64,000 nucleotides of DNA, from NCBI GenBank assembly GCA_964641355.1, contig CAZXND010000001.1, forward strand, positions 151,858-215,857, in the 5' to 3' direction. Positions 35,387 through 64,000 of the stretch are shown in pieces. Under the pieces are notes generated by a model. The model worked only from the letters and a program-made list of their open reading frames with translations. It ran no database searches and was not told the origin of the DNA. A program made the translations under genes and the position numbers. Source of the DNA: an uncultured Gammaproteobacteria bacterium. GTDB lineage: Bacteria > Patescibacteriota > Microgenomatia > Levybacterales > GWA1-39-11. Position 1 is the stretch's first letter. Each line of letters starts with the position of its first letter.

Positions 35387-35470
35387 GGAGGGTTGGCCGA
35401 GTGGTTTATGGCGCTGGTCTTGAAAACCAGTGAGTGAAAGCTCTCACAGGTTCGAATCCTGTACCCTCCG
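35387..35470 (+). tRNA. tRNA-Ser (anticodon UGA), type II with long variable arm
   Basis: Acceptor GGAGGGT/ACCCTCC, anticodon loop cTTGAaa and a long variable arm gtgagtgaaagctctcac. CCA is not encoded. Confidence 0.85.
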
Positions 35471-35548
35471 CAGAGTTCTGTTATAATTTAAGCCGCAATT
35501 CATTGGAGGAGTCGGATAAGCAAATAGCTTGTGCGGCTCTCAAACAAG

Positions 35549-35637
35549 GGAGGAGTCGCATAGTTGGTCCATTGCGAGGGTTTGCTAAACCCTTGAGTCT
35601 AAATGACTCGCGCAGGTTCGAATCCTGTCTCCTCCGC
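35549..35637 (+). tRNA. tRNA-Ser (anticodon GCU), type II with long variable arm
   Basis: Acceptor GGAGGAG/CTCCTCC, anticodon loop tTGCTAa and a long variable arm. ORF 35434..35688 is a spurious overlap. Confidence 0.85.
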
Positions 35638-35729
35638 CCACAATCCCTTCTAGAAATTATTACTTTTTTGTTACCGATTTGTGGCTAAATTTAATTGCTA
35701 TATAAAGAGTCCTATGATAAACTTTTACT

Positions 35730-36038
35730 ATGGAAAACGAAGGTGCAAAAGCTACCGGTAGTTCTGTGTCGCTTAGTATTCATGATGAAGTAGTAAATTC
35801 AGGTGTTAATCTTATCCATCCAGATCGGGAATTAATCTCTTCTATAAATGGGACTCCAATGGAGACCAGAGGAGAAATAATCGAACATCCAACCCAACCC
35901 TCTAATATCATCGACTTCACCAATGCCAAAGAGGCCATGAACACTCAAGAAGGAGAAACGAAGCGATCAACAAATAGATGGAAGCGATTATGGTTTTTTA
36001 GAGAAAAAGAACAAAAGGAGAAAAAAGATGCAGCTTGA
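35730..36038 (+). CDS. Hypothetical small soluble protein, translationally coupled to the following ATPase
   Basis: 102 aa with no motifs; it overlaps the downstream gene by 11 nt. Confidence 0.35.
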   Translation: MENEGAKATGSSVSLSIHDEVVNSGVNLIHPDRELISSINGTPMETRGEIIEHPTQPSNIIDFTNAKEAMNTQEGETKRSTNRWKRLWFFREKEQKEKKDAA

Positions 36039-38457
36039 AATTTTCTCAATCGACACTATCGTAACAATTCTTTTTTCTTTGGTTCTTTCTATCGTTTTGG
36101 TATCAGCTTTAATCGCTTCTCTTGTTGGAATTTTCTATGCATGGGGTCTTTGGAGAAAATCTGAATTACGACACAAAAAATCTTTAGACTCGTCTCTTCT
36201 TGAAATAGCACTTCCACGCGATAACGAAATAAAAATAGATGCAGCAGAACAACTTTTTTCAAGCTTTGCAGCAATGAAAAGCGTTAAAGGAATTCTTGCA
36301 TTTTCAAAAGTTCCCGACAGTATTTCTTTTGAAATCGTTGCACGCCCACAAGATATTAGATTTTATGTAGGAGTTCCAAAAAATCTTCGTGACATGGTTG
36401 AAAAACAAATTCATGGATCATATCCCGACGCACAGATAAAAGAAGTTGAAGACTATAATCTTTTTTCAGATAGTGGCGAGGTCGCCTACGCAAGCTTGGG
36501 CACAAAAGCCTCCTCTTACATTCCTATAAAAACGTTCAAAGACATACCTATTGATCCGCTTTCACAAATAACGAGTGTCATGGGAAAAATGCAGGAAGGT
36601 GAAGCCGCTGCGATTCAAATAATGATCACTCCCGGAGGAGATAAGTGGAAGAAATCAGGACGAACATACATCTCAGGTGTTAAAAAAAGAGAAGCAAATC
36701 CTGAAACAGCAAAATATTCAGTCGATCAAAGAGAGCTTGAGTCAATTGAACAAAAATTACCAAAACCTGGATTTTCCACATATATAAGACTAGTAGTTGT
36801 ATCCTCTACAAAAGAGTCTGCCGAAGCACATCTTTCAAACCTGGTCAGCTCCTTCACTCAATTTTCTTCTTACAACTCATTTGTAAAAAAGAAAATAACG
36901 TTTTTTAAGGACTCATTTATGGTTGACTTTATTTATCGATACTTACCACTCAGGGATAAAGGATCAATTCTAAACTCAGAAGAATTAGCAACCATATTCC
37001 ATTTCCCAAATAAAAGCATAGATAATCCACATATTAATTGGCTATCTGCACGAGTTGCACCAGCACCTGCAACAATTCCAACTTCAGGACTTTATCTTGG
37101 AAAGAGCATTTTTAGAGGAGTTGAAAAACCAATTTATGTTGGAGAGGATGACAGGAGACGTCATATGTATATTATTGGAAAAACCGGTACAGGAAAATCA
37201 GAACTTCTTAAAAGCATGATCTTACAGGATATAAAGGCTGGTAAAGGGGTCTGTTTCATAGATCCACATGATACAATTGAACAAATTCTCCCCCTTATTC
37301 CACCCGAGCGAGCAGAAGATGTAATTCTATTTGATCCCTCAGATACAGATAGACCAATGGGTTTAAATATGCTTGAAGCAAATACTGAAGAACAAAAACA
37401 TTTTATGGTTTCATCGATTATTGGTCTTATGTATAAGCTTTATGACCCACACCAAACAGGAATTATTGGTCCAAGATTTGAACATGCAGTCCGAAACGCA
37501 ATGCTTACAGTAATGAGCGAAGAAGGAAACACTTTCGTTGAAGTTGTTAGAGCCCTAACCGACTCCGCTTTTGTACAAGAACTTTTACCCAAAGTCGATG
37601 ACCCGATCATAAGAAGATATTGGACAGATCAAATTGCTCAAACTTCTGATTTTCACAAGTCTGAAGTACTAGACTATATAGTTTCTAAATTCGGACGATT
37701 TGTTACCAACAAAATGATGAGAAATATAATAGGACAAAGCAAAAGCGCTTTTAACTTTCGTGAAATAATGGACTCAAGAAAAATTCTTCTCATTTCTCTT
37801 GCAAAAGGAAAAATTGGTGAGGAAAATTCTAGCTTTTTAGGACTTATTCTCGTCCCAAGAATTTTAATTGCCGCTATGTCCCGACAAGACATTCCCATGG
37901 AAAGGCGACAAGACTTCTATCTTTACGTTGATGAGTTTCAGAACTTTGCTACTCCGGACTTTGCCCAAATATTATCTGAGGCAAGAAAATATAGACTGAA
38001 TTTGATTGTTGCCAATCAATTTATCGGACAGATGGAGGAAGAGGTTAAAAACGCTGTTTTTGGAAATGCAGGAACAATCATGTCTTTTAGAGTCGGTGTA
38101 ACAGATGCAAACTACCTTCAACATGAATTCCAACCAACATTTTCCGAAGCGGATCTAATAAATGTTGAACGATTCCACGCTTATATGAAAACAATTGTAA
38201 GTGGAGAACCAGTACCTCCGTTTTCAATTGACTTAACTAGAAATATCGTTGAAGAGAAAAAACTTGAAAACCCAAGAGTTGCAGAACTTGTTAAAGAACT
38301 TTCAAGACTTAAATATGGAAAACCTAAAGAACAAATAGAGAATGAGATAGCAAAAAGATCTAGACTTTTTGAAGTCGAAGAAGATTATTCAAAAGACTTA
38401 CCTGAATTGGGACGCGGACCAGAGGGTGGATTTGGTGGAACAGGTGGTAGTATCTAA
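36028..38457 (+). CDS. Membrane-anchored FtsK/HerA-superfamily ATPase, VirD4/TraD/TraG-type coupling-protein-like
   Basis: 809 aa. N-terminal TM, Walker A HMYIIGKTGTGKSE (TrwB-like GxTGTGKS), Walker B LYVDEFQNF, and a downstream RKYRLNLIVANQFIGQM block resembling the conserved T4CP ...ILQ..QL motif. Gly-rich C-terminal tail. Confidence 0.5.
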   Translation: MQLEIFSIDTIVTILFSLVLSIVLVSALIASLVGIFYAWGLWRKSELRHKKSLDSSLLEIALPRDNEIKIDAAEQLFSSFAAMKSVKGILAFSKVPDSISFEIVARPQDIRFYVGVPKNLRDMVEKQIHGSYPDAQIKEVEDYNLFSDSGEVAYASLGTKASSYIPIKTFKDIPIDPLSQITSVMGKMQEGEAAAIQIMITPGGDKWKKSGRTYISGVKKREANPETAKYSVDQRELESIEQKLPKPGFSTYIRLVVVSSTKESAEAHLSNLVSSFTQFSSYNSFVKKKITFFKDSFMVDFIYRYLPLRDKGSILNSEELATIFHFPNKSIDNPHINWLSARVAPAPATIPTSGLYLGKSIFRGVEKPIYVGEDDRRRHMYIIGKTGTGKSELLKSMILQDIKAGKGVCFIDPHDTIEQILPLIPPERAEDVILFDPSDTDRPMGLNMLEANTEEQKHFMVSSIIGLMYKLYDPHQTGIIGPRFEHAVRNAMLTVMSEEGNTFVEVVRALTDSAFVQELLPKVDDPIIRRYWTDQIAQTSDFHKSEVLDYIVSKFGRFVTNKMMRNIIGQSKSAFNFREIMDSRKILLISLAKGKIGEENSSFLGLILVPRILIAAMSRQDIPMERRQDFYLYVDEFQNFATPDFAQILSEARKYRLNLIVANQFIGQMEEEVKNAVFGNAGTIMSFRVGVTDANYLQHEFQPTFSEADLINVERFHAYMKTIVSGEPVPPFSIDLTRNIVEEKKLENPRVAELVKELSRLKYGKPKEQIENEIAKRSRLFEVEEDYSKDLPELGRGPEGGFGGTGGSI

Positions 38458-38513: not shown

Positions 38514-38536
38514 CTCAGTGGCGGAGCGCTACTCTT
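38514..38536 (+). other. Partial duplicate (5' half: D-arm to anticodon loop) of the downstream tRNA gene
   Basis: ctcagtggcGgagcgctactctt is 22/23 identical to nt 38582..38604 of the tRNA 36 nt downstream. The identity breaks exactly inside the anticodon loop. Confidence 0.5.
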
Positions 38537-38571: not shown

Positions 38572-38643
38572 GCGCCTGTAGCTCAGTGGCAGAGCGCTAC
38601 TCTTATAAAGTAGATGTCCTTGGTTCGAATCCAAGCAGGCGCA
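38572..38643 (+). tRNA. tRNA with anticodon UAU (tRNA-Ile, AUA-decoding) - unusual anticodon
   Basis: Cloverleaf: acceptor GCGCCTG/CAGGCGC, D-arm GCTC-AGTGGCA-GAGC, anticodon stem CTACT/AGTAG with loop CTTATAA, T-arm CTTGG-TTCGAAT-CCAAG, discriminator A. 72 nt. CCA is not encoded. Confidence 0.75.
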
Positions 38644-38693
38644 CAACCCAAAAAATTGTCCGTCGAATCCAAGCAGATTATATAGAAACTGCC

Positions 38694-50938: not shown

Positions 50939-52558
50939 ATGAACCTTCTATCCAAGCTTTCTTTATCTCGTATAACTACATATTATATAGTAGCTCTTCT
51001 TTTCTTTGTATTTTTCTCTCTTCTTCCATCTCAAGCTCTTGCACAATCCCCACTCAACATAAATACACAAGAGGGTGTAGAGAATAACATCCACACATAC
51101 TCACAAATTGCAATGATTGAAGTTTTAAGAAGTGCATCATGCTTCTTAACAGGCAAAGACCCTCTTGCGGTTAAAGCACAATGTATAGGAGTTAATCCCA
51201 TCTCAGGCAAATATGGGTACATTAATCAAGAAAACAATGGAATGATCGGAGTTATGGGTAATTTAATGTCTATGACATTCAACATTCCAATCAGCACCGG
51301 CCAATATTCATCTTATCTTGCAAATGATTTTGGTATAGCAAAAAAGACTTATGCTCAGGGACCTGGATTTCCTGGTCTTGCACCTGTTCTTAACCTTTGG
51401 AAAACTTTTAGAAATATTTCATACTTACTGTTTGTACTCATATTTATCGCTCTTGGTCTTGGAATAATGTTTCGAGTCAAAGTTGATCCGCGTACAGTTA
51501 TGACCGTACAAAATCAAATTCCCAAAATTATTATCGCGTTGGTTCTCGTAAGTCTTTCGTATGCGATTGTTGGATTTCTGATAGATCTAATGTTTGGGTT
51601 CATTTATCTTGAGTTTAATATGATCGGATCATCAACCCCAGATATTCAAACCAATATTTTTTCTTTTGTTAATAATACTATTGACCTTGAAGGAGGAGGA
51701 ATTTTTGGAACAATGATGCTTTCCTCTCTATCAGTTGGGAAGATTATAGCTTCTTCCTTTAATAATCTTTTTGCAGAACTAGGAAGCTCTCTTCTGGGAA
51801 CTGCTACAAAAGCAATTGGAGTGCTTTTAATACCTGTGACCTTTGGTGCGTCAGGAATTCCAGCAGGTTGTGACATCGCAGGAAAAATAGGAATTGGACC
51901 AGTAAGTATAAGAGATATTCCATTTATTTCTTCTGGTTGTGATGCAGTTGATAATCTTCCTCAAATAATAATCGGGGCGATAACAACAATTCTGGCATTT
52001 TTGGTTATAGCGATTGCAGTACTCTGGGCATTATTTAGAACATGGTTTATGCTTATCAGAGCTTTTGTCTATATTCTTATAGATACTCTTTTTGCTCCTC
52101 TTTGGATATCTGTTGGAATTTTGCCAGGTGCATCAGGTCTTGGATTTGAAAAATGGATAAGGCATTTGATGGCAAACATTTCTGTTTTTCCTGTAGTCGT
52201 TGGAATGTACTTAATAGCCAATTCACTAATCCACTCATTTGGCGGCGCCAATAGTTTTACACCTCCTCTAGTTGGGAACCCAAGTCAATCAGATGCAATA
52301 GGAGCGCTTATTGCTCTTGGATTTATTCTTTCCACTCCACAAGCTATATCAACAACAAGAAACGCCTTTAAAGCACCCGACTTTAAGCTCGTCGCACTCA
52401 AAACAGCGCTTGGAGTTGGGGTTGGAGGACCAAGAAGAGTTGTAAGCGGAGGACTAGGATACGTATACAGTCCGAAGCACGATCCAAAATCAGGAACCGT
52501 TATTTATCCTGCTGGTCCTATTGGAAAAGGGTTGAGAGCGCTTGGGATTATTCGCTAG
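50939..52558 (+). CDS. Polytopic membrane protein with N-terminal secreted domain; candidate VirB6/TrbL-like channel subunit
   Basis: Signal peptide, extracytoplasmic domain of about 130 aa, then at least 6 TM helices. Assigned by architecture and genomic context (same locus as the PrgI-like and VirB4-like genes), not by motif. Confidence 0.3.
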   Translation: MNLLSKLSLSRITTYYIVALLFFVFFSLLPSQALAQSPLNINTQEGVENNIHTYSQIAMIEVLRSASCFLTGKDPLAVKAQCIGVNPISGKYGYINQENNGMIGVMGNLMSMTFNIPISTGQYSSYLANDFGIAKKTYAQGPGFPGLAPVLNLWKTFRNISYLLFVLIFIALGLGIMFRVKVDPRTVMTVQNQIPKIIIALVLVSLSYAIVGFLIDLMFGFIYLEFNMIGSSTPDIQTNIFSFVNNTIDLEGGGIFGTMMLSSLSVGKIIASSFNNLFAELGSSLLGTATKAIGVLLIPVTFGASGIPAGCDIAGKIGIGPVSIRDIPFISSGCDAVDNLPQIIIGAITTILAFLVIAIAVLWALFRTWFMLIRAFVYILIDTLFAPLWISVGILPGASGLGFEKWIRHLMANISVFPVVVGMYLIANSLIHSFGGANSFTPPLVGNPSQSDAIGALIALGFILSTPQAISTTRNAFKAPDFKLVALKTALGVGVGGPRRVVSGGLGYVYSPKHDPKSGTVIYPAGPIGKGLRALGIIR

Positions 52559-55500
52559 CTTGAAGTAAGGTTCTTAAGATCGAGTACCACTGTTGTTTCA
52601 ATCATCGCAATAATTATTAACGCAAGAATACCTCTTGCGGAATAGAGCTTAAGTCGTCCATTTTTATCCACTTCAAGAATTGATTCTAAATCCCTAAATT
52701 GCTTCTCAGCATTATGCGTTCTCTCTTCAATCAACTTTCTCTGCTCCTCATCAGATAGAAGTTTTTCTTCATCGCTTAATTCTCCGACGCTATTTGCAAG
52801 CTTAATTCTAATATGGTCTAACTTTTCTCGCAAATCATCTCTTGTTAGAGATGCAGCCTGAGGACCGTAAATTTCCTCGAGTCTTGAAGTTGCTCTTCTA
52901 AAAGGTTTGTCTATTCCAAAAACATCCCAGAAAAATCCTTTTTTCGCCACTTCAAAAAGAGTACCAACCGTGTGTCTAACTGATTTTGCCCTACCCCCTT
53001 GTCCCAGATATTGACTGGCTGATTCTGCAAATTCCATCGCAGATTTGACACGCTCATCAATACCTTCTGATTTAAGAAAAGCAGTAAGCGCTGAGCCGGC
53101 CTTCATTGCGTTTGATATATCATTCATGTTTCTAACCAAAGCATCTGCGCCCCTATCTTTAGACCAAATACTTGAAAGCATTTTCAAGCCAGACCCTTCT
53201 GGACCTTCTTCAAGATCTTTTATAGAAATGTCATCTACCCTAAGAGTTCTTGTATAGATGTCATCAAATTCTTTTCCCCATGAAAGTTTTTTAATTTTTT
53301 CCGAAGTAACGAAACCCTGCATAGAAGAAAACATTTTTTCAAGTTTTTCTGCCTCTTCTTCGCTTCTTAAAAATTTCACCAAAGCACTCCTTTGCATGGG
53401 AGTTAGATGTGCAAAGTCAATTTGCTCTGGTACTCCTTCATTAAATTTTCCATTTAAAGCATCTTCTCTCATCTTGCTTATTATTGCTCCATACTCTTGT
53501 TTGAAACCATCAAATTTATTCTGTGCCTTAAATGCTTTCACTTTCCTTTTTAGCGAGTCTAACTCTTCCCTTCCAAGGGAGAGCGCTTTGCTTGATAGCT
53601 TTTCTAAATTTTCATCATCAAAATAGGATTTAAAAAATTCGAATTCTTTTTTGTCTGTTCCGTCGTATTTTATTTCTACAAAGGGCGAGGACGGATCAAG
53701 AAGAAGCTCTTGAAAATCAGAATCACTAGGAGCTTTATCTCTAAAAAGTCTTATCACTTCTTCGGTTCTAAATTTTCTAATTTTTTTCCAAATGTCTTCT
53801 AGCTCACTGAGCTTTGATTCTTTGTCTTTTGGATTTCTTGTAGCTCCTTTCAACTGCATAAAAAGCCCAAAATTATTAGCCTCTTTTACTGTCTCTTTGA
53901 ATCTACTTACATCTGACATCCTACCACTCAACTCAAATTCCTTTAATCTTTCCTCGATAAGATCATATGCCTCGCCTTCGCTTATTATTCCGAGCTTAGT
54001 CGCCACTTTATATTCAAAAAACTCTCTGTGCCTCTCTCGAATACCAAGAATTCTCCAACCAGAAGAATAAAAATCAGCTACTGCAAATAGGTCCTTAAAA
54101 AGTTTAGAACCTGCTCTTTCAGCTTCTAAATCATTCTCGTATTTAATTCCCAACTCACTAGCTCTTTCATAAGCCATTCTAAGCTTCATCTCTCTTAGAA
54201 ACTCTCTATCCTCAGCATTAAGAATGTTAAATTTTCCAGTGAGGAATTCTTCATAGTTAAAGATATTGAAAGCAGCACCTGGATCAGAATAGATGGCTAG
54301 AAGGCCCGGTGCATGTTCACCACGAGAAGCAATAACTATTTCTCTTTGCGAATCAACCAAAATGTCATAGGCCGTTCTAATAGACCTCTCTACTTTTTTT
54401 CTAGCACGGTCTAAATCTAATAAATTCCCTTTCTCATCTTTAAACTCATAAACACCAGCTTCAACCATCTTCATTTGTTCTTCGATAAGATCTTCATTGA
54501 CTCTTGTAACAGTCTCAGAATATAAATGCTGCTCGAATCCTCCTTGTCTTAATCTCTCATCTTCAAGCTTGTCGGCTATTCTAAAATACATGGCTTGAGT
54601 AAAACCGTCTTCAAAACTAAGTGCCTTAAACATCCCATGAGATTGAAGTCTTGAGGCTGCACCTTGGATTTGCTCAATTGATCTTGATTCAACGTTAACC
54701 CGCATAAATAACGAGTTTATAAGAATATTGTATCGCTCAGAAAATTCGGTAAGAACTTTTGTTCCATCAGCTCTATTTCCAATAGTAATTTCAAGATATC
54801 TAGTCGCTTCTCCAAAAGCTCTTTGGAGAGTCTCAAAAACAGGAGACTCTAATTCATTTCCTCTTCTTGCTGTATCATAAAATAGATCAAACTTCTCACT
54901 TAACCATCCCTGAGGATCAATGTCCAACTGTTCCATATCCTCAGACTGAATTGTAAAAAAGTTTCTTCTTTCTCTATCCTGTGAATGACTCAAGCGTTTT
55001 TCTATTGCAGACTCTTGATCAGCTATGGACTTTAGAACCTGCGCCTTCTCAACTCCATTAACACCCTCCATTTCATCAACTCTTTTAAAAGCCGCCCTTA
55101 GTTCTTCCAACTGTCTCCCTACATTACCCTGAAAAATATCAAAATTACGATTAACCCTTCCTATTTCTGCAATAAGCGATAAGTCTTTTATACCCTTATT
55201 ACCAATCGCATCTGCCCCACCCTCAACAGGTTTAACACCCATCTCTCCTAAAATTCTAGCGACCTGTCTTTCCTCTGAGGATATTACCTGGCCCCTACCT
55301 TCTCTTTCTTCAAAATGTTTCTGCCAATCGTTTGTCATGCTACTTATTTGAGGATTAGTTAAAAGTTCGCTGCCTCGACCTTGATAGGGTTTGCTTCTAA
55401 TCTCAGCTGCCCCTTTTCTAACATCAAGATTTATTTTTCCATCAAAAGAAGCTGGACTTCCTTCTTGTTTCGGTTCCATTCTACCTTCCAGTGTATAAGG

Positions 55501-55563
55501 GTTCACTCTTTGTGTCAACTCAGATTGATTTAAAAAGATTATTCTTTCTTTCATAGATCGCAT
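52555..55563 (-). CDS. Giant (1002 aa) alpha-helical/coiled-coil protein with single C-terminal TM helix (tail-anchored)
   Basis: No enzymatic motifs found. It is charged and Glu/Lys/Arg-rich. The only hydrophobic segment is C-terminal (GILALIIIAMIETTVVL). Its 5' end overlaps the VirB6-like gene by 4 nt on the opposite strand. Confidence 0.4.
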   Translation of the reverse strand: MRSMKERIIFLNQSELTQRVNPYTLEGRMEPKQEGSPASFDGKINLDVRKGAAEIRSKPYQGRGSELLTNPQISSMTNDWQKHFEEREGRGQVISSEERQVARILGEMGVKPVEGGADAIGNKGIKDLSLIAEIGRVNRNFDIFQGNVGRQLEELRAAFKRVDEMEGVNGVEKAQVLKSIADQESAIEKRLSHSQDRERRNFFTIQSEDMEQLDIDPQGWLSEKFDLFYDTARRGNELESPVFETLQRAFGEATRYLEITIGNRADGTKVLTEFSERYNILINSLFMRVNVESRSIEQIQGAASRLQSHGMFKALSFEDGFTQAMYFRIADKLEDERLRQGGFEQHLYSETVTRVNEDLIEEQMKMVEAGVYEFKDEKGNLLDLDRARKKVERSIRTAYDILVDSQREIVIASRGEHAPGLLAIYSDPGAAFNIFNYEEFLTGKFNILNAEDREFLREMKLRMAYERASELGIKYENDLEAERAGSKLFKDLFAVADFYSSGWRILGIRERHREFFEYKVATKLGIISEGEAYDLIEERLKEFELSGRMSDVSRFKETVKEANNFGLFMQLKGATRNPKDKESKLSELEDIWKKIRKFRTEEVIRLFRDKAPSDSDFQELLLDPSSPFVEIKYDGTDKKEFEFFKSYFDDENLEKLSSKALSLGREELDSLKRKVKAFKAQNKFDGFKQEYGAIISKMREDALNGKFNEGVPEQIDFAHLTPMQRSALVKFLRSEEEAEKLEKMFSSMQGFVTSEKIKKLSWGKEFDDIYTRTLRVDDISIKDLEEGPEGSGLKMLSSIWSKDRGADALVRNMNDISNAMKAGSALTAFLKSEGIDERVKSAMEFAESASQYLGQGGRAKSVRHTVGTLFEVAKKGFFWDVFGIDKPFRRATSRLEEIYGPQAASLTRDDLREKLDHIRIKLANSVGELSDEEKLLSDEEQRKLIEERTHNAEKQFRDLESILEVDKNGRLKLYSARGILALIIIAMIETTVVLDLKNLTSS

Positions 55564-55654: not shown

Positions 55655-56980
55655 ATGAAACAAAACGAAGCCTCTCATTTTGAATCCCTCTATCCTGCCG
55701 AAACCCGAGAGAAAGAAATTGGCGAAATCATTGGGTTTGTAAAAAAGGGCTTATCTTCACAACTAATTGGTCTTCCAGGAAGTGGGAAAAGCAATGTTTT
55801 AAATCTTTTAACATACAACAGAAAAGTGCGAACTCTTCATTTAGGAAACGCGCAAAATAAATACCATTTCGTATACATGGATTTTTCCGAAATTAAAGGT
55901 CGAAATAATTTTGAAGTTATTAAATTTATTCTAATTTCACTCGCCTATTCACTTTCTGAAAGAAGAATGAATAAAGAATATGGAGAGATAAATAAATATT
56001 TAAAAGAAGCAATTTCATTTAATGATGAGCTCATTCTTTTCCAAGCGCTTAAAAAAAGCATTGATTTTCTAGCAAACGAATTAGACCTTACCGTAATCCT
56101 TCTACTGGACAGGTTTGATCAATATTTTTACGATGTATCAGATTCCTTTTTTCTTAATTTAAAAATTCTAAGAAATAGGGCGAAGTATAAATTTTCTACC
56201 GTTTTCTCACTTTCACGCTCAATACAAGAACTCCTAGAAGAAGACGTTTATTCTGAATTTTCTGAATTTTTTTCTCAAAACAAGGTCTTTCTTAGTCTTT
56301 TTGACAAAATAGGCATAGCATTTAGACTTTCATATCTTGATAAAACCACTAATAAAAAAACAAGTGAAATGACAAAAAAAGAACTTCTAAGAATAACATC
56401 CGGACATGGAAAATTGACTCGAGTAGGATACGAACTTTTACTTTCTGAAAAAGAAATATCCGACATTGAAAACTTTTTAGAACAAAAAGACATTATTAAA
56501 AAAGTCTGTTATGAAATTTGGGATACTCTTACCCCTGCCGAACAAAATATTTTAATAAAAATTTCAAAAAAAGAAGATATAAAAATCCCAAATTATTTTG
56601 AAGAAATAGAACTTATAAAAAACGGGGAAATATATATTCCAATTTTTGAAAAATTTCTAAGCAAAGTAAAATTCAAAAACGAATTAATAGTTTATGATGA
56701 AGGAAAAAATGAGATACTTAAAGGTCAAGATAATTTAACAGATGTTTTAACTCCGCTAGAATTTAGAGTCTTAAGATTTTTAATTATAAATAAAGATAGA
56801 ACTTGCGAAAAAGAGGAAATTATTAACTCTGTATGGAAAGACTCAAAAACACAAGAAGGAGTTAGCGACCAAGCCTTAGATCAAATCGCTTATAGACTTA
56901 GAAAAAAGATTGAGAATGACCCCAACAATCCAAATTACATTTTAACTATCAAGGGTCGTGGTTTTAAATTTAATCCTTAA
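55655..56980 (+). CDS. P-loop NTPase fused to C-terminal OmpR/PhoB-type winged-helix DNA-binding domain (putative locus regulator)
   Basis: N-terminal Walker A LIGLPGSGKSNVLNLL in an AAA/STAND-like domain of about 250 aa. The C-terminal 100 aa match the trans_reg_C pattern (LTPLEFRVLRFLIINKDRTCEKEEIINSVW...SDQALDQIAYRLRKKIE...ILTIKGRGFKF). Confidence 0.55.
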   Translation: MKQNEASHFESLYPAETREKEIGEIIGFVKKGLSSQLIGLPGSGKSNVLNLLTYNRKVRTLHLGNAQNKYHFVYMDFSEIKGRNNFEVIKFILISLAYSLSERRMNKEYGEINKYLKEAISFNDELILFQALKKSIDFLANELDLTVILLLDRFDQYFYDVSDSFFLNLKILRNRAKYKFSTVFSLSRSIQELLEEDVYSEFSEFFSQNKVFLSLFDKIGIAFRLSYLDKTTNKKTSEMTKKELLRITSGHGKLTRVGYELLLSEKEISDIENFLEQKDIIKKVCYEIWDTLTPAEQNILIKISKKEDIKIPNYFEEIELIKNGEIYIPIFEKFLSKVKFKNELIVYDEGKNEILKGQDNLTDVLTPLEFRVLRFLIINKDRTCEKEEIINSVWKDSKTQEGVSDQALDQIAYRLRKKIENDPNNPNYILTIKGRGFKFNP

Positions 56981-56982
56981 GC

Positions 56983-58353
56983 TTGTATTTTAAATTTAGA
57001 TTCGGTTATGATTTAAGAGTGAGAAAATTCCTTCTTCTAATAATAATTCTAATTACTTTTTTTTCTATATCAAAGATTTCCTTTGCACAAGAACAAAAAA
57101 CCCCATCTTCTACTCCTGCTGCTTCTGATCCAAACGGTTACGGAGCAATTATTACTAGCCCATCGAATCCGGACGACATAGTTGAAGGGCACAAGATTAT
57201 AACTGTAAAATTCACAATCCCATCATCAGAAATTGGAAATGAATTTTTACTTTGTCAGGAAGCAGATTGCGGTGAAACTCACGACAAATTAAATAATGGA
57301 ATCGCAGACTCAAAACCCACTACGGCAAGTTTTGATATTAAAGTATGTGGAGCAGAAGCTGGAGTTTTACAAACCAATAATTGCGAAAACAGTGGCTCTG
57401 ATCTTTACGGTGGAATGATGTACTATCTTACATTGGTAAAACATGAAAGAGAATCAACTGGGCAAGTAACAACCTCGGAATCATTCACTCCTGTTGCGAG
57501 TGTCAGTTTTTATGTTAAAAGAATCTATCCAAATGTTGATTTAACTTCTGAAAACGAAAACAAACCGCGTATTGGATCGAAGCCTATCTTACATTTCAGC
57601 CAAAACGAATTTCCAGTACCAGAAGATGCCCTTACTGATACTTATACGTATAAAGTTCAAGTTTTTAAAATTGGAGCAAGTGATGAAGAGTATGACTATC
57701 AAGAAGAAGTAGAACTAAATGAAAATAATAAGTCTGATGACCTCAAAATAACTACAAACGGGGAGACCGGAGGTGGCCTCCCGGAAGGAAATTACATTGT
57801 AAAAATTTTCCGTAAATCCTCCCCCTTCACTGATTCTGCAAATACAGTAGTCGGGGGAGATGGTTTTCTAATGTACACAATCGATTTTAGCGTCACGAAT
57901 AATGGGGGAAAGATAGGAGTAAAGAAGAAAGACCCAGAAGGGAAAGATAATAGACTTTTTGCTGCAGGAGATCAGCTCAGTCCGACCCCTCCTCCACTTC
58001 CCTGCTTGGAAGGGTGGAAAGACGATCAAAAAACTATAATATCTCAGGATCCTAAAGAAATAAAATATTGTACGAAAGTTGGTACAGCGCTGGGAAGTCT
58101 TGAGGTAATGCCTCTTGGATTAATATCAAATCTTCTAAGATGGTTCCTTGGTATTGCCGGATCCGCTTCGCTTATTATCTTTCTTTATGCAGGATATGTA
58201 TTAATGACATCAGCTGGAAACAAGGAAAAGGTTCAGGGGGCACGTGAAACAATAACCTCAGCCATTGTTGGACTGATATTTATCATTTTTTCTGTAGCAA
58301 TTCTTGAATTTATCGGCGTTGATATCTTGCAAATTCCAGGACTTGGAAAATAG
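56983..58353 (+). CDS. Secreted Cys-containing 330-aa domain fused via Pro-rich linker to a C-terminal VirB2/TrbC-like two-TM pilin module (candidate tip adhesin/minor pilin)
   Basis: Signal peptide, a soluble domain with 6 Cys, a SPTPPPLP linker, then ...LISNLLRWFLGIAGSASLIIFLYAGYVLMTSAGNKEKVQGARETITSAIVGLIFIIF..., which is homologous to the three downstream small proteins. Confidence 0.45.
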   Translation: MYFKFRFGYDLRVRKFLLLIIILITFFSISKISFAQEQKTPSSTPAASDPNGYGAIITSPSNPDDIVEGHKIITVKFTIPSSEIGNEFLLCQEADCGETHDKLNNGIADSKPTTASFDIKVCGAEAGVLQTNNCENSGSDLYGGMMYYLTLVKHERESTGQVTTSESFTPVASVSFYVKRIYPNVDLTSENENKPRIGSKPILHFSQNEFPVPEDALTDTYTYKVQVFKIGASDEEYDYQEEVELNENNKSDDLKITTNGETGGGLPEGNYIVKIFRKSSPFTDSANTVVGGDGFLMYTIDFSVTNNGGKIGVKKKDPEGKDNRLFAAGDQLSPTPPPLPCLEGWKDDQKTIISQDPKEIKYCTKVGTALGSLEVMPLGLISNLLRWFLGIAGSASLIIFLYAGYVLMTSAGNKEKVQGARETITSAIVGLIFIIFSVAILEFIGVDILQIPGLGK

Positions 58354-58356
58354 CCA

Positions 58357-58701
58357 ATGAAAGATTTATTAGCTCTGACAGTACAAAACCCAAGCGGAGT
58401 AATCGAAAAATTGAGTCCTCCTCCCGAAATAATCAGTGGGCCGGGCACAACAAATACAATAGTGAGATTTGGTCTTAATCTTCTTGTTGTTACTGGAATT
58501 ACCGCATCTCTTATCTATATGCTTCTTGCCGGAATTAAATGGATAACTTCTGGCGGAGACAAACAGAAGATCGAAGAGGCAAGGAAGGGAATTACATATT
58601 CAATAGTTGGAATTATTATTATTTCTTTGTCTTTTGTAATCATACATTTAATAGGAGAAATATTAGGCGTACAGCTTCTCTCAAGGTTTGGTGTTAAATA
58701 A
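58357..58701 (+). CDS. Two-TM pilin-like protein (VirB2/TrbC-like topology), paralog 1
   Basis: 114 aa: ...NTIVRFGLNLLVVTGITASLIYMLLAGIKWITSGGDKQKIEEARKGITYSIVGIIIISLSF... Hydrophobic helix, conserved charged loop, hydrophobic helix. Confidence 0.45.
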   Translation: MKDLLALTVQNPSGVIEKLSPPPEIISGPGTTNTIVRFGLNLLVVTGITASLIYMLLAGIKWITSGGDKQKIEEARKGITYSIVGIIIISLSFVIIHLIGEILGVQLLSRFGVK

Positions 58702-58713
58702 AAAGTTGCACTA

Positions 58714-58742
58714 TTGACAAACTTTTTAGAACATGCTCTAAT
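58714..58742 (+). promoter_or_regulatory. Sigma-70-like promoter (TTGACA-17-TCTAAT) upstream of the signal-peptide-bearing pilin paralog
   Basis: A perfect -35 hexamer with 17-bp spacing to an A/T-rich -10, about 10 nt upstream of the ATG at 58752. Confidence 0.3.
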
Positions 58743-58751
58743 AAATTAGAT

Positions 58752-59189
58752 ATGAAAAAATCACTTAACTTAAAAAAGGCAATAATTCCCTTATCGGCTT
58801 TTGCTTTACTTGCAGTTGCGACTCCAGCATTTGCTGCCACCCAACAACAAGTGATTGACTTAAGTCCTGTTAATGGAGTTGTTCCTAGTAGTGCTGTTCA
58901 AGTAAGTGACGTTATAAGATTTATTATCAATTTACTTGTAGTCATCGCTGTAATTGCTTCTCTTGTATACCTTATTTACGGAGGACTTCGATGGGTAATT
59001 TCAGGTGGGGACAAAGAGAAAGTTGAAGCAGCAAGAAAAACAGTAGTTGCTGCAATTATCGGCTTGGTCGTTGTTCTTCTCTCATGGGTTATAATCACAG
59101 TTGTGATGCAAATCGTAACTGGAAAGGCGCTTAATAATTTCACTCTTCCTACACTACAATCTCCAAACACACAAACTAAACCTCAATAA
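58752..59189 (+). CDS. Two-TM pilin-like protein with cleavable signal peptide (candidate major pilin), paralog 2
   Basis: 145 aa. Signal peptide MKKSLNLKKAIIPLSAFALLAVATPAFA|A, then ...SDVIRFIINLLVVIAVIASLVYLIYGGLRWVISGGDKEKVEAARKTVVAAIIGLVVVLLSW... About 60% identical to paralog 1 across the core. Confidence 0.5.
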   Translation: MKKSLNLKKAIIPLSAFALLAVATPAFAATQQQVIDLSPVNGVVPSSAVQVSDVIRFIINLLVVIAVIASLVYLIYGGLRWVISGGDKEKVEAARKTVVAAIIGLVVVLLSWVIITVVMQIVTGKALNNFTLPTLQSPNTQTKPQ

Positions 59190-59228
59190 CCTCCTTTTAC
59201 TTTCTCAAAATTTTTATATAATAAAATA

Positions 59229-59558
59229 ATGAATAGTCTCAATACTAGCAACTGGAACTCGTGCATCGACAGTGCTTATGGTGTTCCACAACTTACATGC
59301 CTTTGGGTAATTTTGAGTAATATCCTTAACGCCTTCCTTACTTTATCAGGACTTGTAGCATTATTCTTAATAATCTATTCTGGGATAAAATTTATAATGT
59401 CGCGCGGAGATAAAGAAAAAATCGAAGGAGCAAGAAAAACTTTTATTTTTGCTATTATCGGGCTCGTTTTTATTCTATTATCTTTTTATATTTTAGTATT
59501 TATAGGACAACTAACAGGAATTAAAATCGATAAGTTAATAACCCCGCCACAAAGATAA
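59229..59558 (+). CDS. Two-TM pilin-like protein, paralog 3
   Basis: 109 aa: ...LSNILNAFLTLSGLVALFLIIYSGIKFIMSRGDKEKIEGARKTFIFAIIGLVFILLSF..., the same conserved core. Confidence 0.45.
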   Translation: MNSLNTSNWNSCIDSAYGVPQLTCLWVILSNILNAFLTLSGLVALFLIIYSGIKFIMSRGDKEKIEGARKTFIFAIIGLVFILLSFYILVFIGQLTGIKIDKLITPPQR

Positions 59559-61884: not shown

Positions 61885-63051
61885 GTGTATTTCTCGCCCA
61901 GAAAGGCTCGTAATATGGAAATGGAGAATCATCCGATTCCCCTTGATGTTACAGGATTTAAATTTAGACTGATAGGAAGCATGACTGTTAAGCAGTTTTT
62001 GTATCTTTTGGCTTCTGGAATACTTGTATCGCTTACACTTCTTCTTCCCTGGCCACTTTTAATAAGAGTTCCAATGATTACTTTTTTCTCTTTGGTTGGA
62101 TTTAGTCTGGCTTTTATTCCAATCGATGGAAGACCCATGGATAAAATGATTGCTAGCTTTGCAAAACACGTTCTGTTTACAGAAGACTTGTGGGTTTATC
62201 GAAAAAAAGGAGCAAATATTGCTTCTTATGAAATCTTCCAAGAACCCAAAGTTGAAACAAAACCCGCTCCACAAGAACCATCCCAACCAAGTATACGCAC
62301 TTTTGCTATTAAAAAACCTCACGTAAAACTCGAGCAAGAAGAACTCGATTTTTTGAAAAGAGTACGAGGGTTTTTCTCAGAATCAGCCGTTCAACAACAA
62401 CCAGTTATAAATTCTACAACTTCTTCTCCCCATCCAACGCAAACAGAAGGAGAAGAAGCCTTGAAAATCCGCACTGAGATTCAACAAATTAAAAATCGTG
62501 TGGAAGTTGAAGGTCCAACAGAAGAATTAAAAAAAAGACTTACAGAACTCGAAGCAAGACTTAGCAATATTCTCGCTCAAAATATTGCCCTTCAAAATAA
62601 AGTATTTGAATTTCAAAGACAAATTCCAGACAAGGCTTACCAGGTGGAAGGCAAACCTACTATAACACCTAACGCAAGACTAGTAGACAGCGCAAGTCAA
62701 GTTAAGGCTGGCTTTCCAATGCTTCCTGATATCCCAAACGTGATACTTGGAATAGTAAAAGATCCCAGAGGTAGGATTTTACCTGGAATTATAGTCGAAG
62801 TGGTAGATCAAAATAATATTCCAGTGCGTGCTTTTAAAACAAATAAATTAGGACAATTTGCTGCCGCAACACCTCTTCCAAATGGAAAATATAAAATAAT
62901 TTTTGAAGATCCTCAAAAAAACAACGAGTTTGAAACAATCGAGATAGACCTTAATGGACAAATTTTTCAACCGCTTGAGGTTATTTCAATTGATCAAAGA
63001 GAGAGACTTAGACAAGAGCTCTTTGGTAAGACAAATTCGTTACAAAACTAA
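61885..63051 (+). CDS. PrgI/VirB3-like T4SS membrane protein fused to coiled-coil and C-terminal beta-sandwich (CarboxypepD_reg-like) domain
   Basis: The N-terminal 110 aa (PLDVTGFKFRLIGSMTVKQFLYLLASGILVSLTLLLPWPLL...FSLAFIPIDGRPMDKMIASF) match the PrgI-family pattern (..tfrQllYLl.. hairpin of two TM helices). The VirB4-like gene follows immediately. The C-terminus has VILGIVKDPRGRILPGIIVEVVDQNNIPV...GKYKIIFEDP. The start may be at M11/M13. Confidence 0.5.
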   Translation: MYFSPRKARNMEMENHPIPLDVTGFKFRLIGSMTVKQFLYLLASGILVSLTLLLPWPLLIRVPMITFFSLVGFSLAFIPIDGRPMDKMIASFAKHVLFTEDLWVYRKKGANIASYEIFQEPKVETKPAPQEPSQPSIRTFAIKKPHVKLEQEELDFLKRVRGFFSESAVQQQPVINSTTSSPHPTQTEGEEALKIRTEIQQIKNRVEVEGPTEELKKRLTELEARLSNILAQNIALQNKVFEFQRQIPDKAYQVEGKPTITPNARLVDSASQVKAGFPMLPDIPNVILGIVKDPRGRILPGIIVEVVDQNNIPVRAFKTNKLGQFAAATPLPNGKYKIIFEDPQKNNEFETIEIDLNGQIFQPLEVISIDQRERLRQELFGKTNSLQN

Positions 63052-63052
63052 T

Positions 63053-63685
63053 ATGTCAAAGAGGAAAATTTCATCAACAACACAGGACTTTACAGAACTA
63101 ATAGACATAATCGATGGAATCGCTTTTTTCAAAAATAGGAATTCAGCTCTTGTTGTTGAAGTTTCATCAGTTAATTTTTCACTGCTCTCCCCCGATGAGC
63201 AGAACTCAAGGATCTATGGCTACATGAGTCTTTTAAATTCTCTTTCTTTTCCAATCCAAGTCCTAGTAGTAAGTCAGAAAATAAATATGTCTTCCTATGT
63301 AAAAACATTAGATCAAAGAATCACAAGTTCACAAAACTCAAGAATTTCAAAACACTTAGTCGAATATAAAAACTTTATAAAAGAGCTCACAAAAACGGAA
63401 GGACTTCTTGACAAAACGATCTATGTAGTTATTCCACTCACCCCTCTTGAGCTTGGAATATCAAACGTTGCAAAAGAGATAAAAAAACAAGCCGAGTTTG
63501 TAGAAACAACTAGAAAAACACTTAATAGTCGGGCAGCAAGCGTTATTAACCAACTACAAAGACTAGGTCTTACAGCAAAAGTACTCAACTCAGACGATTT
63601 AGCAAGACTTTACCATAATATTTATAACCAAGAATCGATAAATATAGAGTATGAGTCACAGGATTTAAAGAATGTGATTTTATAA
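63053..63685 (+). pseudogene. VirB4/TraE-like T4SS ATPase, N-terminal 210-aa segment (ORF terminated by TAA; continues in another frame)
   Basis: STTQDFTELIDIIDGIAFFKNRNSALVVEVSSVNFSLLSPDEQNSRIYGYMSLLNSLSFPIQVLVVSQ follows the N-terminal-domain pattern of Gram-positive VirB4 homologues (..DG.i.....g.f...y.l..iNF.l...dEqe.i...y...LNs.....Q.....). The start at 63053 was chosen because its first codon abuts the stop of the PrgI-like gene. Confidence 0.5.
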
Positions 63686-63689
63686 AAAT

Positions 63690-64000
63690 ATGTTTGGAAA
63701 AAAGAAACAAGCAACTCCACCTCAACCCAAAATCTCTCCGTCTATGTCTGCTTTAAAAAGCGGATCGATATCACTTGTAGATTTAATCGCCCCCTCATCG
63801 GTTGAAGTAGATTTTAAATTCGTTAGGATCGGGGATAGTTTTTTTAGAACCTTCTTCGTTGCAGATTATCCAAGAGTCGTGTCTCCAGGCTGGCTTTCAA
63901 GCCTTATCGACTTTAAGGAATCAATGAATATCTCCATGTTTATTTACCCAGTTCAAAGCTCAGACGTTTTATCTAACCTCCGAAGAAAAATTGCCGAGAT
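63690..64000 (+). CDS. VirB4/TraE-like T4SS ATPase, continuation (+1 frame), truncated by window end
   Basis: MFGKKKQATPPQPKISPSMSALKSGSISLVDLIAPSSVEVDFKFVRIGDSFFRTFFVADYPRVVSPGWLSSLIDFKESMNISMFIYPV matches the conserved ..DLIAP.....f...G..y.Rt.fi..yP..l...wl block of Gram-positive VirB4 homologues, at the expected distance from the N-terminal segment. Confidence 0.5.
   Translation, partial: MFGKKKQATPPQPKISPSMSALKSGSISLVDLIAPSSVEVDFKFVRIGDSFFRTFFVADYPRVVSPGWLSSLIDFKESMNISMFIYPVQSSDVLSNLRRKIAE

Follow-up and report, generated by a model that had tools for sequence, protein, structure and literature searches.

A core-chromosomal coupling-protein-type ATPase of Patescibacteria with a predicted VirB4-like N-terminal domain and a small upstream partner

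We analysed a stretch of 64,000 nucleotides from a Patescibacteria contig (CAZXND010000001.1, positions 151,858 to 215,857 of the forward strand; henceforth, the whole of this stretch is called the window), and in it a pair of overlapping + strand genes: a small open reading frame (ORF) of 102 amino acids (aa) and, directly after it, a membrane-anchored ATPase of 809 aa. We found that the ATPase is a vertically inherited gene of the core chromosome, and profile and fold comparisons support its membership in the VirD4/TrwB coupling-protein lineage rather than in VirB4, HerA or FtsK. Between its membrane anchor and its motor lies an additional domain, for which structure prediction suggests the fold of the VirB4 N-terminal domain. 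Taken together, we consider it probable that the protein represents a type IV coupling protein (T4CP) in its Patescibacteria form, most likely serving the T4SS (type IV secretion system) encoded 18-25 kb downstream. An earlier note on this DNA had described the gene as an orphan coupling protein wedged into a tRNA-flanked landing zone for horizontally acquired DNA; the coupling-protein part of that description survives in a modified form, while the orphan status and the acquisition do not.

The two genes (35730-36038 and 36028-38457) overlap by 11 nt, and an AAGGAG is found about 9 nt ahead of the ATPase ATG. The ATPase is 100% identical to the database protein P0001 and belongs to a very large family: more than 7,400 relatives were scored in one search, and a second search matched 22,669 cluster representatives. 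Its nearest relatives, at 69-78% identity, come from Candidatus Levybacteria and other Microgenomatia, and the assignment of the source to Levybacteria is based on such named relatives. The features of the pair are as follows.

35730..36038, + strand: small ORF, 102 aa, fast-evolving (ORF call; positional counterparts)
36028..38457, + strand: membrane-anchored T4CP-type ATPase with DUF8128, 809 aa (ORF, Pfam, AlphaFold2 (AF2) model)
36049..36150, + strand: N-terminal hydrophobic helix, aa 8-41, predicted membrane anchor (sequence, AF2)
36190..37062, + strand: N-terminal alpha/beta domain, aa 55-345, Pfam DUF8128 (PF26449) (Pfam, AF2, Foldseek)
37090..38262, + strand: RecA-type nucleotide-binding domain of T4CP type, aa 355-745 (Pfam, Foldseek, PDB profile search)
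37177..37200, + strand: Walker A GKTGTGKS (YIIGKTGTGKSELL), aa 384-391 (translation)
37375..37782, + strand: all-alpha insertion, aa ~450-585, between Walker A and Walker B (AF2, TrwB_AAD_bind span)
37918..37947, + strand: Walker B YLYVDEFQNF, aa 631-640 (translation)
37984..38034, + strand: RKYRLNLIVANQFIGQM block, aa 653-669 (translation)

The membrane anchor, the P-loop, the Walker B DEFQNF and the RKYRLNLIVANQFIGQM block that had been named in the earlier note were all recovered in the translation, in which EARKYRLNLIVANQFIGQM spans aa 651-669. Both homologue alignments, of 21 and of 51 sequences, showed the key residues of all three motifs to be invariant, namely G384, G387, G389 and K390 of Walker A, Y633, D635, E636, F637 and N639 of Walker B, and R653, K654, Q664 and Q668 of the block. 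The ATPase thus appears to be catalytically competent as judged by its motifs, and R653 may act as an arginine finger, with the glutamines as sensors.

The assignment to the T4CP lineage draws on three kinds of comparison. At the level of Pfam profiles, the TrwB_AAD_bind match covers aa 376-671 and, in the window protein itself, the scores relative to the gathering thresholds were 21.7/20.5 for TrwB_AAD_bind, 20.4/20.1 for T4SS-DNA_transf and 25.4/22 for TraG-D_C. When the same families were scanned in 51 relatives, both TrwB_AAD_bind and TraG-D_C were found in 50, T4SS-DNA_transf in 30, and HerA_C and AAA_10 in only 4 each, with no match at all to CagE_TrbE_VirB (best E-values: 8e-11 for TrwB_AAD_bind, 2e-8 for TraG-D_C and 1e-15 for T4SS-DNA_transf). 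The comparison of T4CP, VirB4 and HerA profiles that had been proposed for settling the subfamily leans towards T4CPs, if narrowly for the window protein itself, with HerA and FtsK profiles matching the P-loop only: the DUF87/HerA match, nominally the best in Pfam (4e-6), is limited to aa 368-458, and FtsK_SpoIIIE reached 19 bits (cut-off 24) over aa 365-399. The window ATPase has no HAS-barrel and shows neither the alpha nor the gamma domain of FtsK. VirB4 signatures were likewise missing among its Pfam matches (no CagE_TrbE_VirB, no P-loop_TraG, and AAA_10 under the cut-off with an E-value of 0.011); by way of control, the VirB4 of a related Candidate Phyla Radiation (CPR) locus, L028, matches P-loop_TraG (1.6e-29), AAA_10 and CagE_TrbE_VirB.

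The second and third comparisons concern known structures. A profile search of PDB sequences placed TrwB (1e-6) and DotL (6e-6) ahead of HerA (0.007-0.05). We then consider the full-length AF2 model (predicted local distance difference test, pLDDT, 88.9; predicted template modelling score, pTM, 0.78), which starts with the anchor helix, continues with the alpha/beta domain (residues 55-345) and a RecA-type domain, and ends in a disordered tail. Inserted in the RecA-type domain are eight helices, found between residues 454 and 582, at the place of the all-alpha domain of T4CPs. In Foldseek searches the ATPase part aligned with TrwB (E 4e-12, template modelling (TM) score normalised to the target 0.58-0.67, about 430 columns, root-mean-square deviation 5-7 Å) and with Cag-beta (7e-11). 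The best full-length match, collinear over about 900 columns, was to TrwK/VirB4 of R388 (E 2e-17), with a low TM score because the two domains are oriented differently.

The N-terminal part explains why the earlier classification as a type IV coupling protein holds for the lineage and not for the canonical TrwB/TraD architecture. Residues 8-41 are 34 consecutive hydrophobic residues followed by a basic RKSELRHKK, modelled by AF2 as part of one long helix (residues 8-53), and by the positive-inside rule the C-terminus would be cytoplasmic. The domain that follows corresponds to DUF8128, which, together with PF01935 and PF12696, is part of the precomputed Pfam annotation of P0001; PF26449 is annotated in this way in P0001 and all of its 120 closest relatives, and our local Pfam scan gave no PF26449 match. 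We modelled this domain alone (residues 46-346; AF2 pLDDT 91.9, pTM 0.91) and found that its top 14 Foldseek matches in the PDB were all TrwK/VirB4 chains of R388 (E 1.8e-9 to 5.6e-6, TM 0.47-0.55), followed by an unrelated oxidase at E 6e-4, with no TrwB, HerA or FtsK chain among the matches. The models thus suggest for DUF8128 a fold like that of the N-terminal domain of VirB4, a point which the earlier note had missed.

This similarity was confined to structure. No sequence-level signal between DUF8128 and VirB4 was detected, and a profile hidden Markov model (HMM) search of PDB sequences with the N-terminal domain returned nothing relevant. A direct link to the TrsD-like protein or to CPR VirB4 was tried with hhalign and rejected, as the comparison yielded only an 18-residue match (LNSEELA..H vs LNSDDLARLYH) at 7% probability. 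The end of the TrsD-like protein carries a motif, VLNSDDLARLYH, that resembles the DUF8128 linker LNSEELATIFHFP, and this comparison too was not significant. A search for informative fused domains (so-called Rosetta-stone domains) in relatives of 1,200-2,000 aa gave only TPR repeats or nothing. One of the 51 aligned homologues has a T4SS_pilin Pfam match (E 1.8e-5), and the ATPase may there be fused to an N-terminal membrane segment resembling a pilin.

The small upstream ORF was also described in the earlier note, as a coupled partner of the ATPase, and its position proved to be conserved. Positional counterparts were found in L004 (106 aa, with the same 11-nt overlap) and L005 (73 aa), at 31-32% identity, whereas the ATPases of the same genomes share 70-74%. 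More broadly, 52 of 82 loci had a same-strand ORF of at least 60 aa that ended within -35 to +30 nt of the ATPase start. The 102-aa protein has no match in Pfam or NCBIfam, and its C-terminal end is a Trp-containing basic segment, RWKRLWFFREKEQKEKKDAA. Partners elsewhere in the phylum have C-terminal motifs of their own: S.RWLAEW..R in many Microgenomatia, WLK.IPGVNKFFLEQEAKIK in Paceibacteria and ABY1, and DDPY...DY.KKR in Saccharibacteria. Homology of the 102-aa ORF to a wider partner family was considered and rejected, given that an HMM built from 22 more distant Microgenomatia partners (LP.T..E...G...S.RWLAEW) misses it. The positional conservation of the small partner is solid, and its Trp-containing, basic C-terminus seems only loosely similar to those of the other partners.

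To place the gene pair in its genomic context, we compared the window with related loci, with particular attention to the tRNA genes on both sides of the pair. The two upstream tRNA-Ser genes and the downstream tRNA(UAU) of the earlier note were recovered by ARAGORN and Rfam, and its tRNA fragment by a sequence match:

35387..35471, + strand: tRNA-Ser(UGA) (ARAGORN; Rfam 61.5 bits)
35549..35638, + strand: tRNA-Ser(GCU) (ARAGORN; Rfam 54.6 bits)
38514..38536, + strand: tRNA-Ile fragment, a copy of tRNA positions 10-33, 22/23 bases (sequence match)
38572..38644, + strand: tRNA-Ile(UAU) (ARAGORN; Rfam 75.1 bits)
38662..38675, + strand: 3' side of the tRNA-Ile T-arm, a 14/14-nt exact copy (sequence match)

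Levybacteria contigs whose ATPase homologue is 70-76% identical have the same arrangement, with tRNA-Ser(UGA) and tRNA-Ser(GCU) before the gene and tRNA-Ile(UAU) after it. Specifically, tRNA-Ser(UGA) was found upstream of the ATPase in L004, L005, L007 and L008, and tRNA-Ser(GCU) in L004, L005 and L007. The series downstream of the ATPase is also common to the window and Levybacteria, running through SpoIID, a bPH_2 membrane protein, a ~600-aa protein, SmpB and a ComF-like protein, and continuing with a ~430-aa protein, cobalamin adenosyltransferase (CobAT) and ribonucleotide reductase (RNR). Within this neighbourhood the ATPase is the best-conserved gene (70-76% identity vs 36-67% for SpoIID, SmpB, CobAT and RNR). 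The linkage to tRNA-Ile(UAU) reaches even further: about 25 of 80 related loci carry this tRNA downstream of the ATPase, at a distance of ~0.5 kb or less, and they come from Woese-, Davies-, Curtiss- and Collierbacteria, one Dojkabacteria genome and one contig of unreliable label. In the same vein, identity to the window protein drops with taxonomic distance, from 53-78% in Microgenomatia to 44-49% in Dojkabacteria/WWE3 and ~40% in Paceibacteria/ABY1.

The composition of the gene points the same way. The check for deviating GC content and codon usage that the earlier note had suggested revealed none:

GC content: 0.367 in the ATPase gene vs 0.341 ± 0.033 in window genes
GC at third codon positions (GC3): 0.252 in the ATPase gene vs 0.257 ± 0.026 in window genes

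The codon-usage distance of the ATPase was also typical for a gene of its size. In agreement with the earlier note, neither an integrase nor a relaxase was found among the larger window ORFs scanned against Pfam. We also found no ATPase paralogues within the window (at E < 10), and promoter and terminator scans of the sequence gave counts no higher than the shuffled expectation. Overall, the gene content of the window is that of an ordinary Patescibacteria chromosome (GrpE, HrcA, MetRS, GroEL, LepA, MurJ, UvrD, ribonucleotide reductase, SmpB, ComF-like), and the features expected of a genomic island (atypical composition, an integrase, variable presence at a tRNA site) were not found at the ATPase locus. 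The locus is kept at the same position in Levybacteria, which, by the earlier note's own reasoning, makes the gene core; what had been proposed as a landing zone is a conserved chromosomal neighbourhood.

Small-scale changes are nevertheless visible around the tRNAs. The intact tRNA-Ile gene is flanked by partial copies of its 5' half and T-arm, neither of which was called in the Rfam scan, and L005 has an additional 5'-half copy (at ~12503). The orientation of tRNA-Ile relative to the ATPase is flipped in L005, L006, L011 and L020, and that of the tRNA-Ser pair in L004, L005 and L007. The fragments and inversions point to recurrent small local rearrangements with no gene gain. The anticodon of this tRNA-Ile, UAU, is unusual in bacteria and would read AUA without the lysidine made by TilS. 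In 17-19 Microgenomatia loci (between L009 and L050), a tyrosine recombinase of the Xer/phage-integrase type (on the opposite strand) and an FtsB/DivIC-like protein adjoin the ATPase–tRNA-Ile pair, just downstream of the tRNA-Ile. Neither gene occupies this position in the window or its closest relatives, and both would seem to be housekeeping genes with conserved synteny and not parts of a mobile element.

The T4SS of the window lies near its end, and its recognisable genes are the following.

56983..59558, + strand: four T4SS_pilin (VirB2-like) genes (Pfam PF18895, E 3e-7 to 9e-10)
61885..63051, + strand: PrgI (VirB3-like) family protein (Pfam PF12666, 2.4e-6)
62954..63685, + strand: TrsD-like protein directly upstream of VirB4 (position; 45% identity to the L028 ORF next to VirB4)
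63690..64000, + strand: VirB4 N-terminus, cut off by the window end (48% identity to the L028 584-aa protein)

The VirB4-like motor that had been reported at the window end is hence real, beginning at ~63690. The TrsD-like protein has no Pfam match and was assigned by its position, after the description of TrsD in PMC12102498. The distance of 12 kb that had been given between the ATPase and the main locus holds only if unannotated ORFs from ~50.9 kb onwards are counted; the first recognisable T4SS genes are 18.5 kb away. Three large ORFs that lack Pfam matches lie in or beside the T4SS locus (50939-52558 on the + strand, 539 aa; 52555-55563 on the − strand, 1002 aa; 59561-61339 on the − strand, 592 aa). 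The 592-aa ORF, placed after the pilin genes and before PrgI, occupies a spot at which one might look for a VirB6-like channel protein. Immediately upstream of the pilin array we found a 441-aa protein (55655-56980) with a C-terminal DNA-binding domain of OmpR/PhoB type (Trans_reg_C), which may regulate the T4SS pilin array. The CPR VirB4 is a short protein (584 aa in L028), and in L028 (11480-14259) as in the window (61885-64000) it is preceded by a PrgI/VirB3-like protein and by a TrsD-like protein of 218-243 aa that is encoded separately.

Whether the ATPase gene stands next to VirB4 in related genomes had been raised as a further check: T4SS genes lie within 7-9 kb of the ATPase homologue in L028, L047 and L050, and in none of the loci examined do the two share an operon. 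In L047 (Dojkabacteria) and L050 (unreliably labelled) the order on one strand is T4SS pilins, SpoIID, bPH_2, one further gene, SmpB, ATPase and tRNA-Ile; the SpoIID/bPH block, which follows the ATPase in the window, thus adjoins the pilin genes ~7.5 kb upstream of the ATPase there.

Separation of this kind is in fact the normal arrangement of the phylum, and the word orphan therefore does not fit. In a survey of 3,035 Patescibacteria genomes, VirB4 was found in 2,417 (80%), and 5,713 VirD4-type T4CP homologues were found in 2,918 (96%), with virB4 close by in only 148 cases (Quiñonero-Coronel et al., PMC12102498). In the two Levybacteria and two Woesebacteria genomes that we checked, the table of that study gives one T4CP homologue each, not near virB4. 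CONJScan t4cp1 matches at 75% coverage were published for Levybacteria genomes and may belong to the family described here. The same study traces the Patescibacteria T4SS to the MPF-FATA class of monoderms (PMC12102498).

Homologues are also carried by plasmids. Searching plasmid records with the ATPase domain gave 424 records, the best at 26-33% identity, and with the N-terminal domain 56 (Bacillus, Priestia, Pontibacillus and haloarchaeal megaplasmids). The B. subtilis plasmid NZ_OX419581.1 encodes a 913-aa 'DUF87 domain-containing protein' whose alignment with the window ATPase takes in both domains (aa 99-770, 25% identity, E 2e-45). The first gene downstream of it is of the replication-relaxation family; TcpC-, TcpD- and TcpE-like genes and one for a VirB4-sized ATPase come next, which gives the homologue the classical position of a T4CP. 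The plasmid homologue ties the DUF8128 architecture to the conjugation-type machinery of monoderms and fits the published MPF-FATA origin (PMC12102498).

Functional evidence comes from Southlakia epibionticum, the one genetically tractable species, in which the Patescibacteria T4SS is essential for epibiotic growth, with no recognisable coupling protein in the essential T4SS cluster (Wang et al. 2023, PMC10633639). By transposon sequencing (Tn-seq), SEML1_0293 (921 aa; TrwB_AAD_bind, TraG-D_C, DUF87) was non-essential, whereas SEML1_0142 (1019 aa, "TraM recognition domain-containing") was essential at all time points, as was SEML1_0141 (139 aa), which ends 12 nt upstream of it; a canonical FtsK with 4TM, alpha, motor and gamma parts, SEML1_0096, was essential too (PMC10633639). 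The Tn-seq table thus holds two T4CP-like genes, whereas PMC12102498 speaks of a single, non-essential t4cp homologue, presumably SEML1_0293. In gene sizes, order and orientation, and in the ComM neighbour, the surroundings of the essential pair match those of two Saccharibacteria loci (protein lengths in aa, − for the reverse strand):

L057: 129 / 146 / 1027 / −194 / −578
L090: ComM-like(−) ... 112 / 148 / 1048 / −190 / −633
S. epibionticum SEML1_0138-0144: ComM K07391(−) ... 117 / 139 / 1019 / −193 / −535

The large proteins of these Saccharibacteria loci contain DUF8128 and are 39-43% identical to the window ATPase over residues 18-777. From gene order and size we infer that SEML1_0141/0142 are the Saccharibacteria counterparts of the window pair; if so, the module is essential in that species, and the essential pair has apparently been overlooked.

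Combining these observations, a possible sequence of events is that the ATPase would be expressed together with the small upstream protein and form a membrane-associated hexamer, whose VirB4-like N-terminal domain would dock on a platform of VirB3/TrsD/VirB4/VirB6 type encoded at 57-64 kb. ATP hydrolysis could then recruit substrates or feed them into the T4SS, or switch the T4SS between pilus production and secretion, with the small partner as a putative adaptor or regulator. The substrate would more likely be protein than DNA because no relaxase is evident.

Several points weigh against a coupling protein that serves this T4SS. The ATPase lies 18-25 kb from the recognisable T4SS genes (the first pilins begin at 56983), and the window showed neither a relaxase nor any other gene for substrate processing. 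Its own T4CP scores in Pfam are marginal, and the NCBIfam T4CP equivalogs stay far under their cut-offs (e.g., SXT_TraD at 50.6 bits vs 366). The VirB4-like fold comes from a predicted structure and one search method, at a TM score of ~0.5 and ~10% identity. The S. epibionticum t4cp homologue was reported as non-essential and possibly exapted (PMC12102498), and orthology of our protein to SEML1_0142 rather than SEML1_0293 draws on gene order and size, not on S. epibionticum sequences. Finally, T4CP homologues are commoner (96% of genomes) than VirB4 (80%), which could mean a T4SS-independent role, although incomplete metagenome-assembled genomes confound this comparison.

These points bear on four alternatives, which we weighed against the preferred reading. 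The first is that the protein is a second, divergent VirB4-class motor for assembly or pilus biogenesis, possibly a VirB3-VirB4-like fusion, rather than a substrate receptor. Its two-domain architecture of ~800 aa is indeed VirB4-like, the best full-length Foldseek match is TrwK/VirB4 (E 2e-17), the N-terminal domain matches VirB4 chains only and the N-terminal helix has a weak match to TraL of the VirB3 family (E 0.034); moreover, the CPR VirB4 is a short protein of 584 aa, and a TrsD-like gene stands apart from it. The motor itself argues otherwise, with CagE_TrbE_VirB in 0/51 and AAA_10 in 4/51 relatives as opposed to T4CP families in 50/51, a TM score of 0.6 for the ATPase domain on TrwB as opposed to 0.3 for the full-length model on VirB4, and an insignificant profile comparison with CPR VirB4. 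The Bacillus plasmid homologue, in addition, coexists with a separate VirB4-sized ATPase and adjoins a relaxase-family gene. We thus regard a VirB4-class motor as unlikely. Somewhat harder to credit is an exapted T4CP-type ATPase with an essential, T4SS-independent role, acting with the small partner in another envelope process, a scenario of a kind raised by the authors of PMC12102498. The excess of genomes with the ATPase family over those with VirB4, housekeeping neighbours in place of an operon with T4SS genes, the essentiality of the SEML1_0141/0142 pair and the SpoIID and bPH_2 membrane protein genes downstream in Levybacteria would all agree with it. Set against this, no alternative partner machinery is consistently linked to the gene across classes, the VirB4-like domain points to a T4SS platform, and the T4SS genes of S. 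epibionticum are essential as well, so that the essentiality of the pair agrees with a common pathway.

Improbable, in our assessment, is a HerA/FtsK-type DNA translocase unrelated to secretion, such as a motor for chromosome segregation or DNA uptake, the outcome which the earlier note had named as contradicting it. The nominal lead of DUF87/HerA in Pfam, weak FtsK_SpoIIIE and CedB/CedD matches, very strong sequence conservation and housekeeping neighbours (the Xer-type recombinase and FtsB-like genes in 17-19 Microgenomatia loci, DnaX in Paceibacteria) speak for it. The HerA, FtsK and Ced matches, however, cover only the P-loop stretch (aa 365-460), FtsK_SpoIIIE stays under its cut-off, the HAS-barrel and the FtsK alpha/gamma domains are lacking, and the matches over the whole domain, by fold as well as by profile, are to T4CPs. 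The narrower idea of an FtsK substitute, suggested by the Xer- and FtsB-like neighbours, was rejected: S. epibionticum has the canonical, essential FtsK SEML1_0096, so the phylum needs no substitute, and FtsK profiles match the P-loop only. By far the least credible is the recent horizontal acquisition of an orphan coupling protein into a tRNA-flanked hotspot. It would account for the tRNA genes on both sides, the partial tRNA-Ile duplicates, the inverted tRNA-Ile of some relatives (so the site does rearrange locally) and the plasmid-borne homologues. It is contradicted by the same tRNAs and neighbours in Levybacteria at 70-76% identity, by a tRNA-Ile(UAU) linkage that spans several CPR classes, by an identity that falls with taxonomic distance, by typical GC, GC3 and codon usage with no integrase found, and by plasmid matches that are at best only 26-33% identical.

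The preferred reading, a Patescibacteria T4CP at work in the T4SS, leads to a broader and more tentative proposal. It is conceivable, though we would not call it likely, that DUF8128 ATPases form an ancient branch of their own, intermediate between VirB4 and T4CPs, which unites a VirB4-type docking domain with the motor of a coupling protein and which, together with the small partner, makes up an essential module of the Patescibacteria epibiotic machinery (the 'missing' coupling ATPase of the essential T4SS, or the drive of some transport process not yet described); the view of dispensability in the literature would then stem from SEML1_0293 alone. If the DUF8128 ATPase and its partner are a real essential coupling module, the site of T4SS substrate selection would be identified, and a docking hypothesis would follow in which the VirB4-like domain binds the VirB3/TrsD/VirB4 platform. 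Part of this picture is already known, as the family is catalogued, if uncharacterised, and T4CP homologues are widespread in Patescibacteria. The VirB4-like front domain and the small partner gene are mildly new; the VirB4-like fold of DUF8128 and the apparently overlooked SEML1_0141/0142 pair draw on prediction and inference. For the window itself the outcome is mainly corrective, in that the locus is ordinary core chromosome and not an acquired island.

Two further observations concern the window and the comparison set at large. A protein with cohesin and PKD domains (12830-14011) marks the sole stretch of clearly raised GC content (0.41-0.43 vs 0.34). Many loci from one third-party assembly set are titled 'uncultured Gammaproteobacteria' or 'uncultured Candidatus Saccharibacteria' while their synteny and sequences are Levybacteria- or Staskawiczbacteria-like, and the organism labels on those loci are unreliable.

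The window ATPase can also be compared with known systems. With the canonical T4CPs (TrwB of R388, VirD4, Cag-beta, DotL) it shares an N-terminal membrane anchor, a RecA-type domain into which an all-alpha part is inserted after Walker A and before Walker B, and the T4CP Pfam matches. It differs from them (~15% identity) in the ~300 extra residues of DUF8128 between anchor and ATPase, in having one predicted helix where they have two transmembrane segments, and in being chromosomal and core with no relaxase nearby. TrwK/VirB4 of R388 (PDB 7o42, 8rtd) is similar in its ~800 aa and two domains, and its N-terminal fold is matched specifically; by contrast, the window ATPase lacks VirB4 sequence signatures, its ATPase domain is nearer to T4CPs, and its genome has a separate, bona fide VirB4 and a TrsD-like protein. 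The relation to HerA and FtsK is that of the ASCE P-loop superfamily (DUF87 P-loop match; Foldseek HerA 3e-12), with matches confined to the core ATPase and neither a HAS-barrel nor FtsK alpha/gamma domains. The 913-aa B. subtilis protein, to which the alignment starts at its residue 58, has homologous N-terminal and ATPase domains and a common ILNxEEL..FP linker motif, and differs in being plasmid-borne beside a replication-relaxation gene and Tcp-like genes; further plasmid relatives are found in Priestia, Pontibacillus, Rhodococcus and haloarchaea. SEML1_0141/0142 of S. epibionticum, finally, show the same arrangement, in which a small ORF immediately precedes a large T4CP-like ATPase with the P-loop domain from about residue 380, whereas the ATPase there is ~200 residues longer at the C-terminus, the Saccharibacteria partner has another conserved motif, and the genome holds a second, dispensable T4CP-like gene, SEML1_0293.

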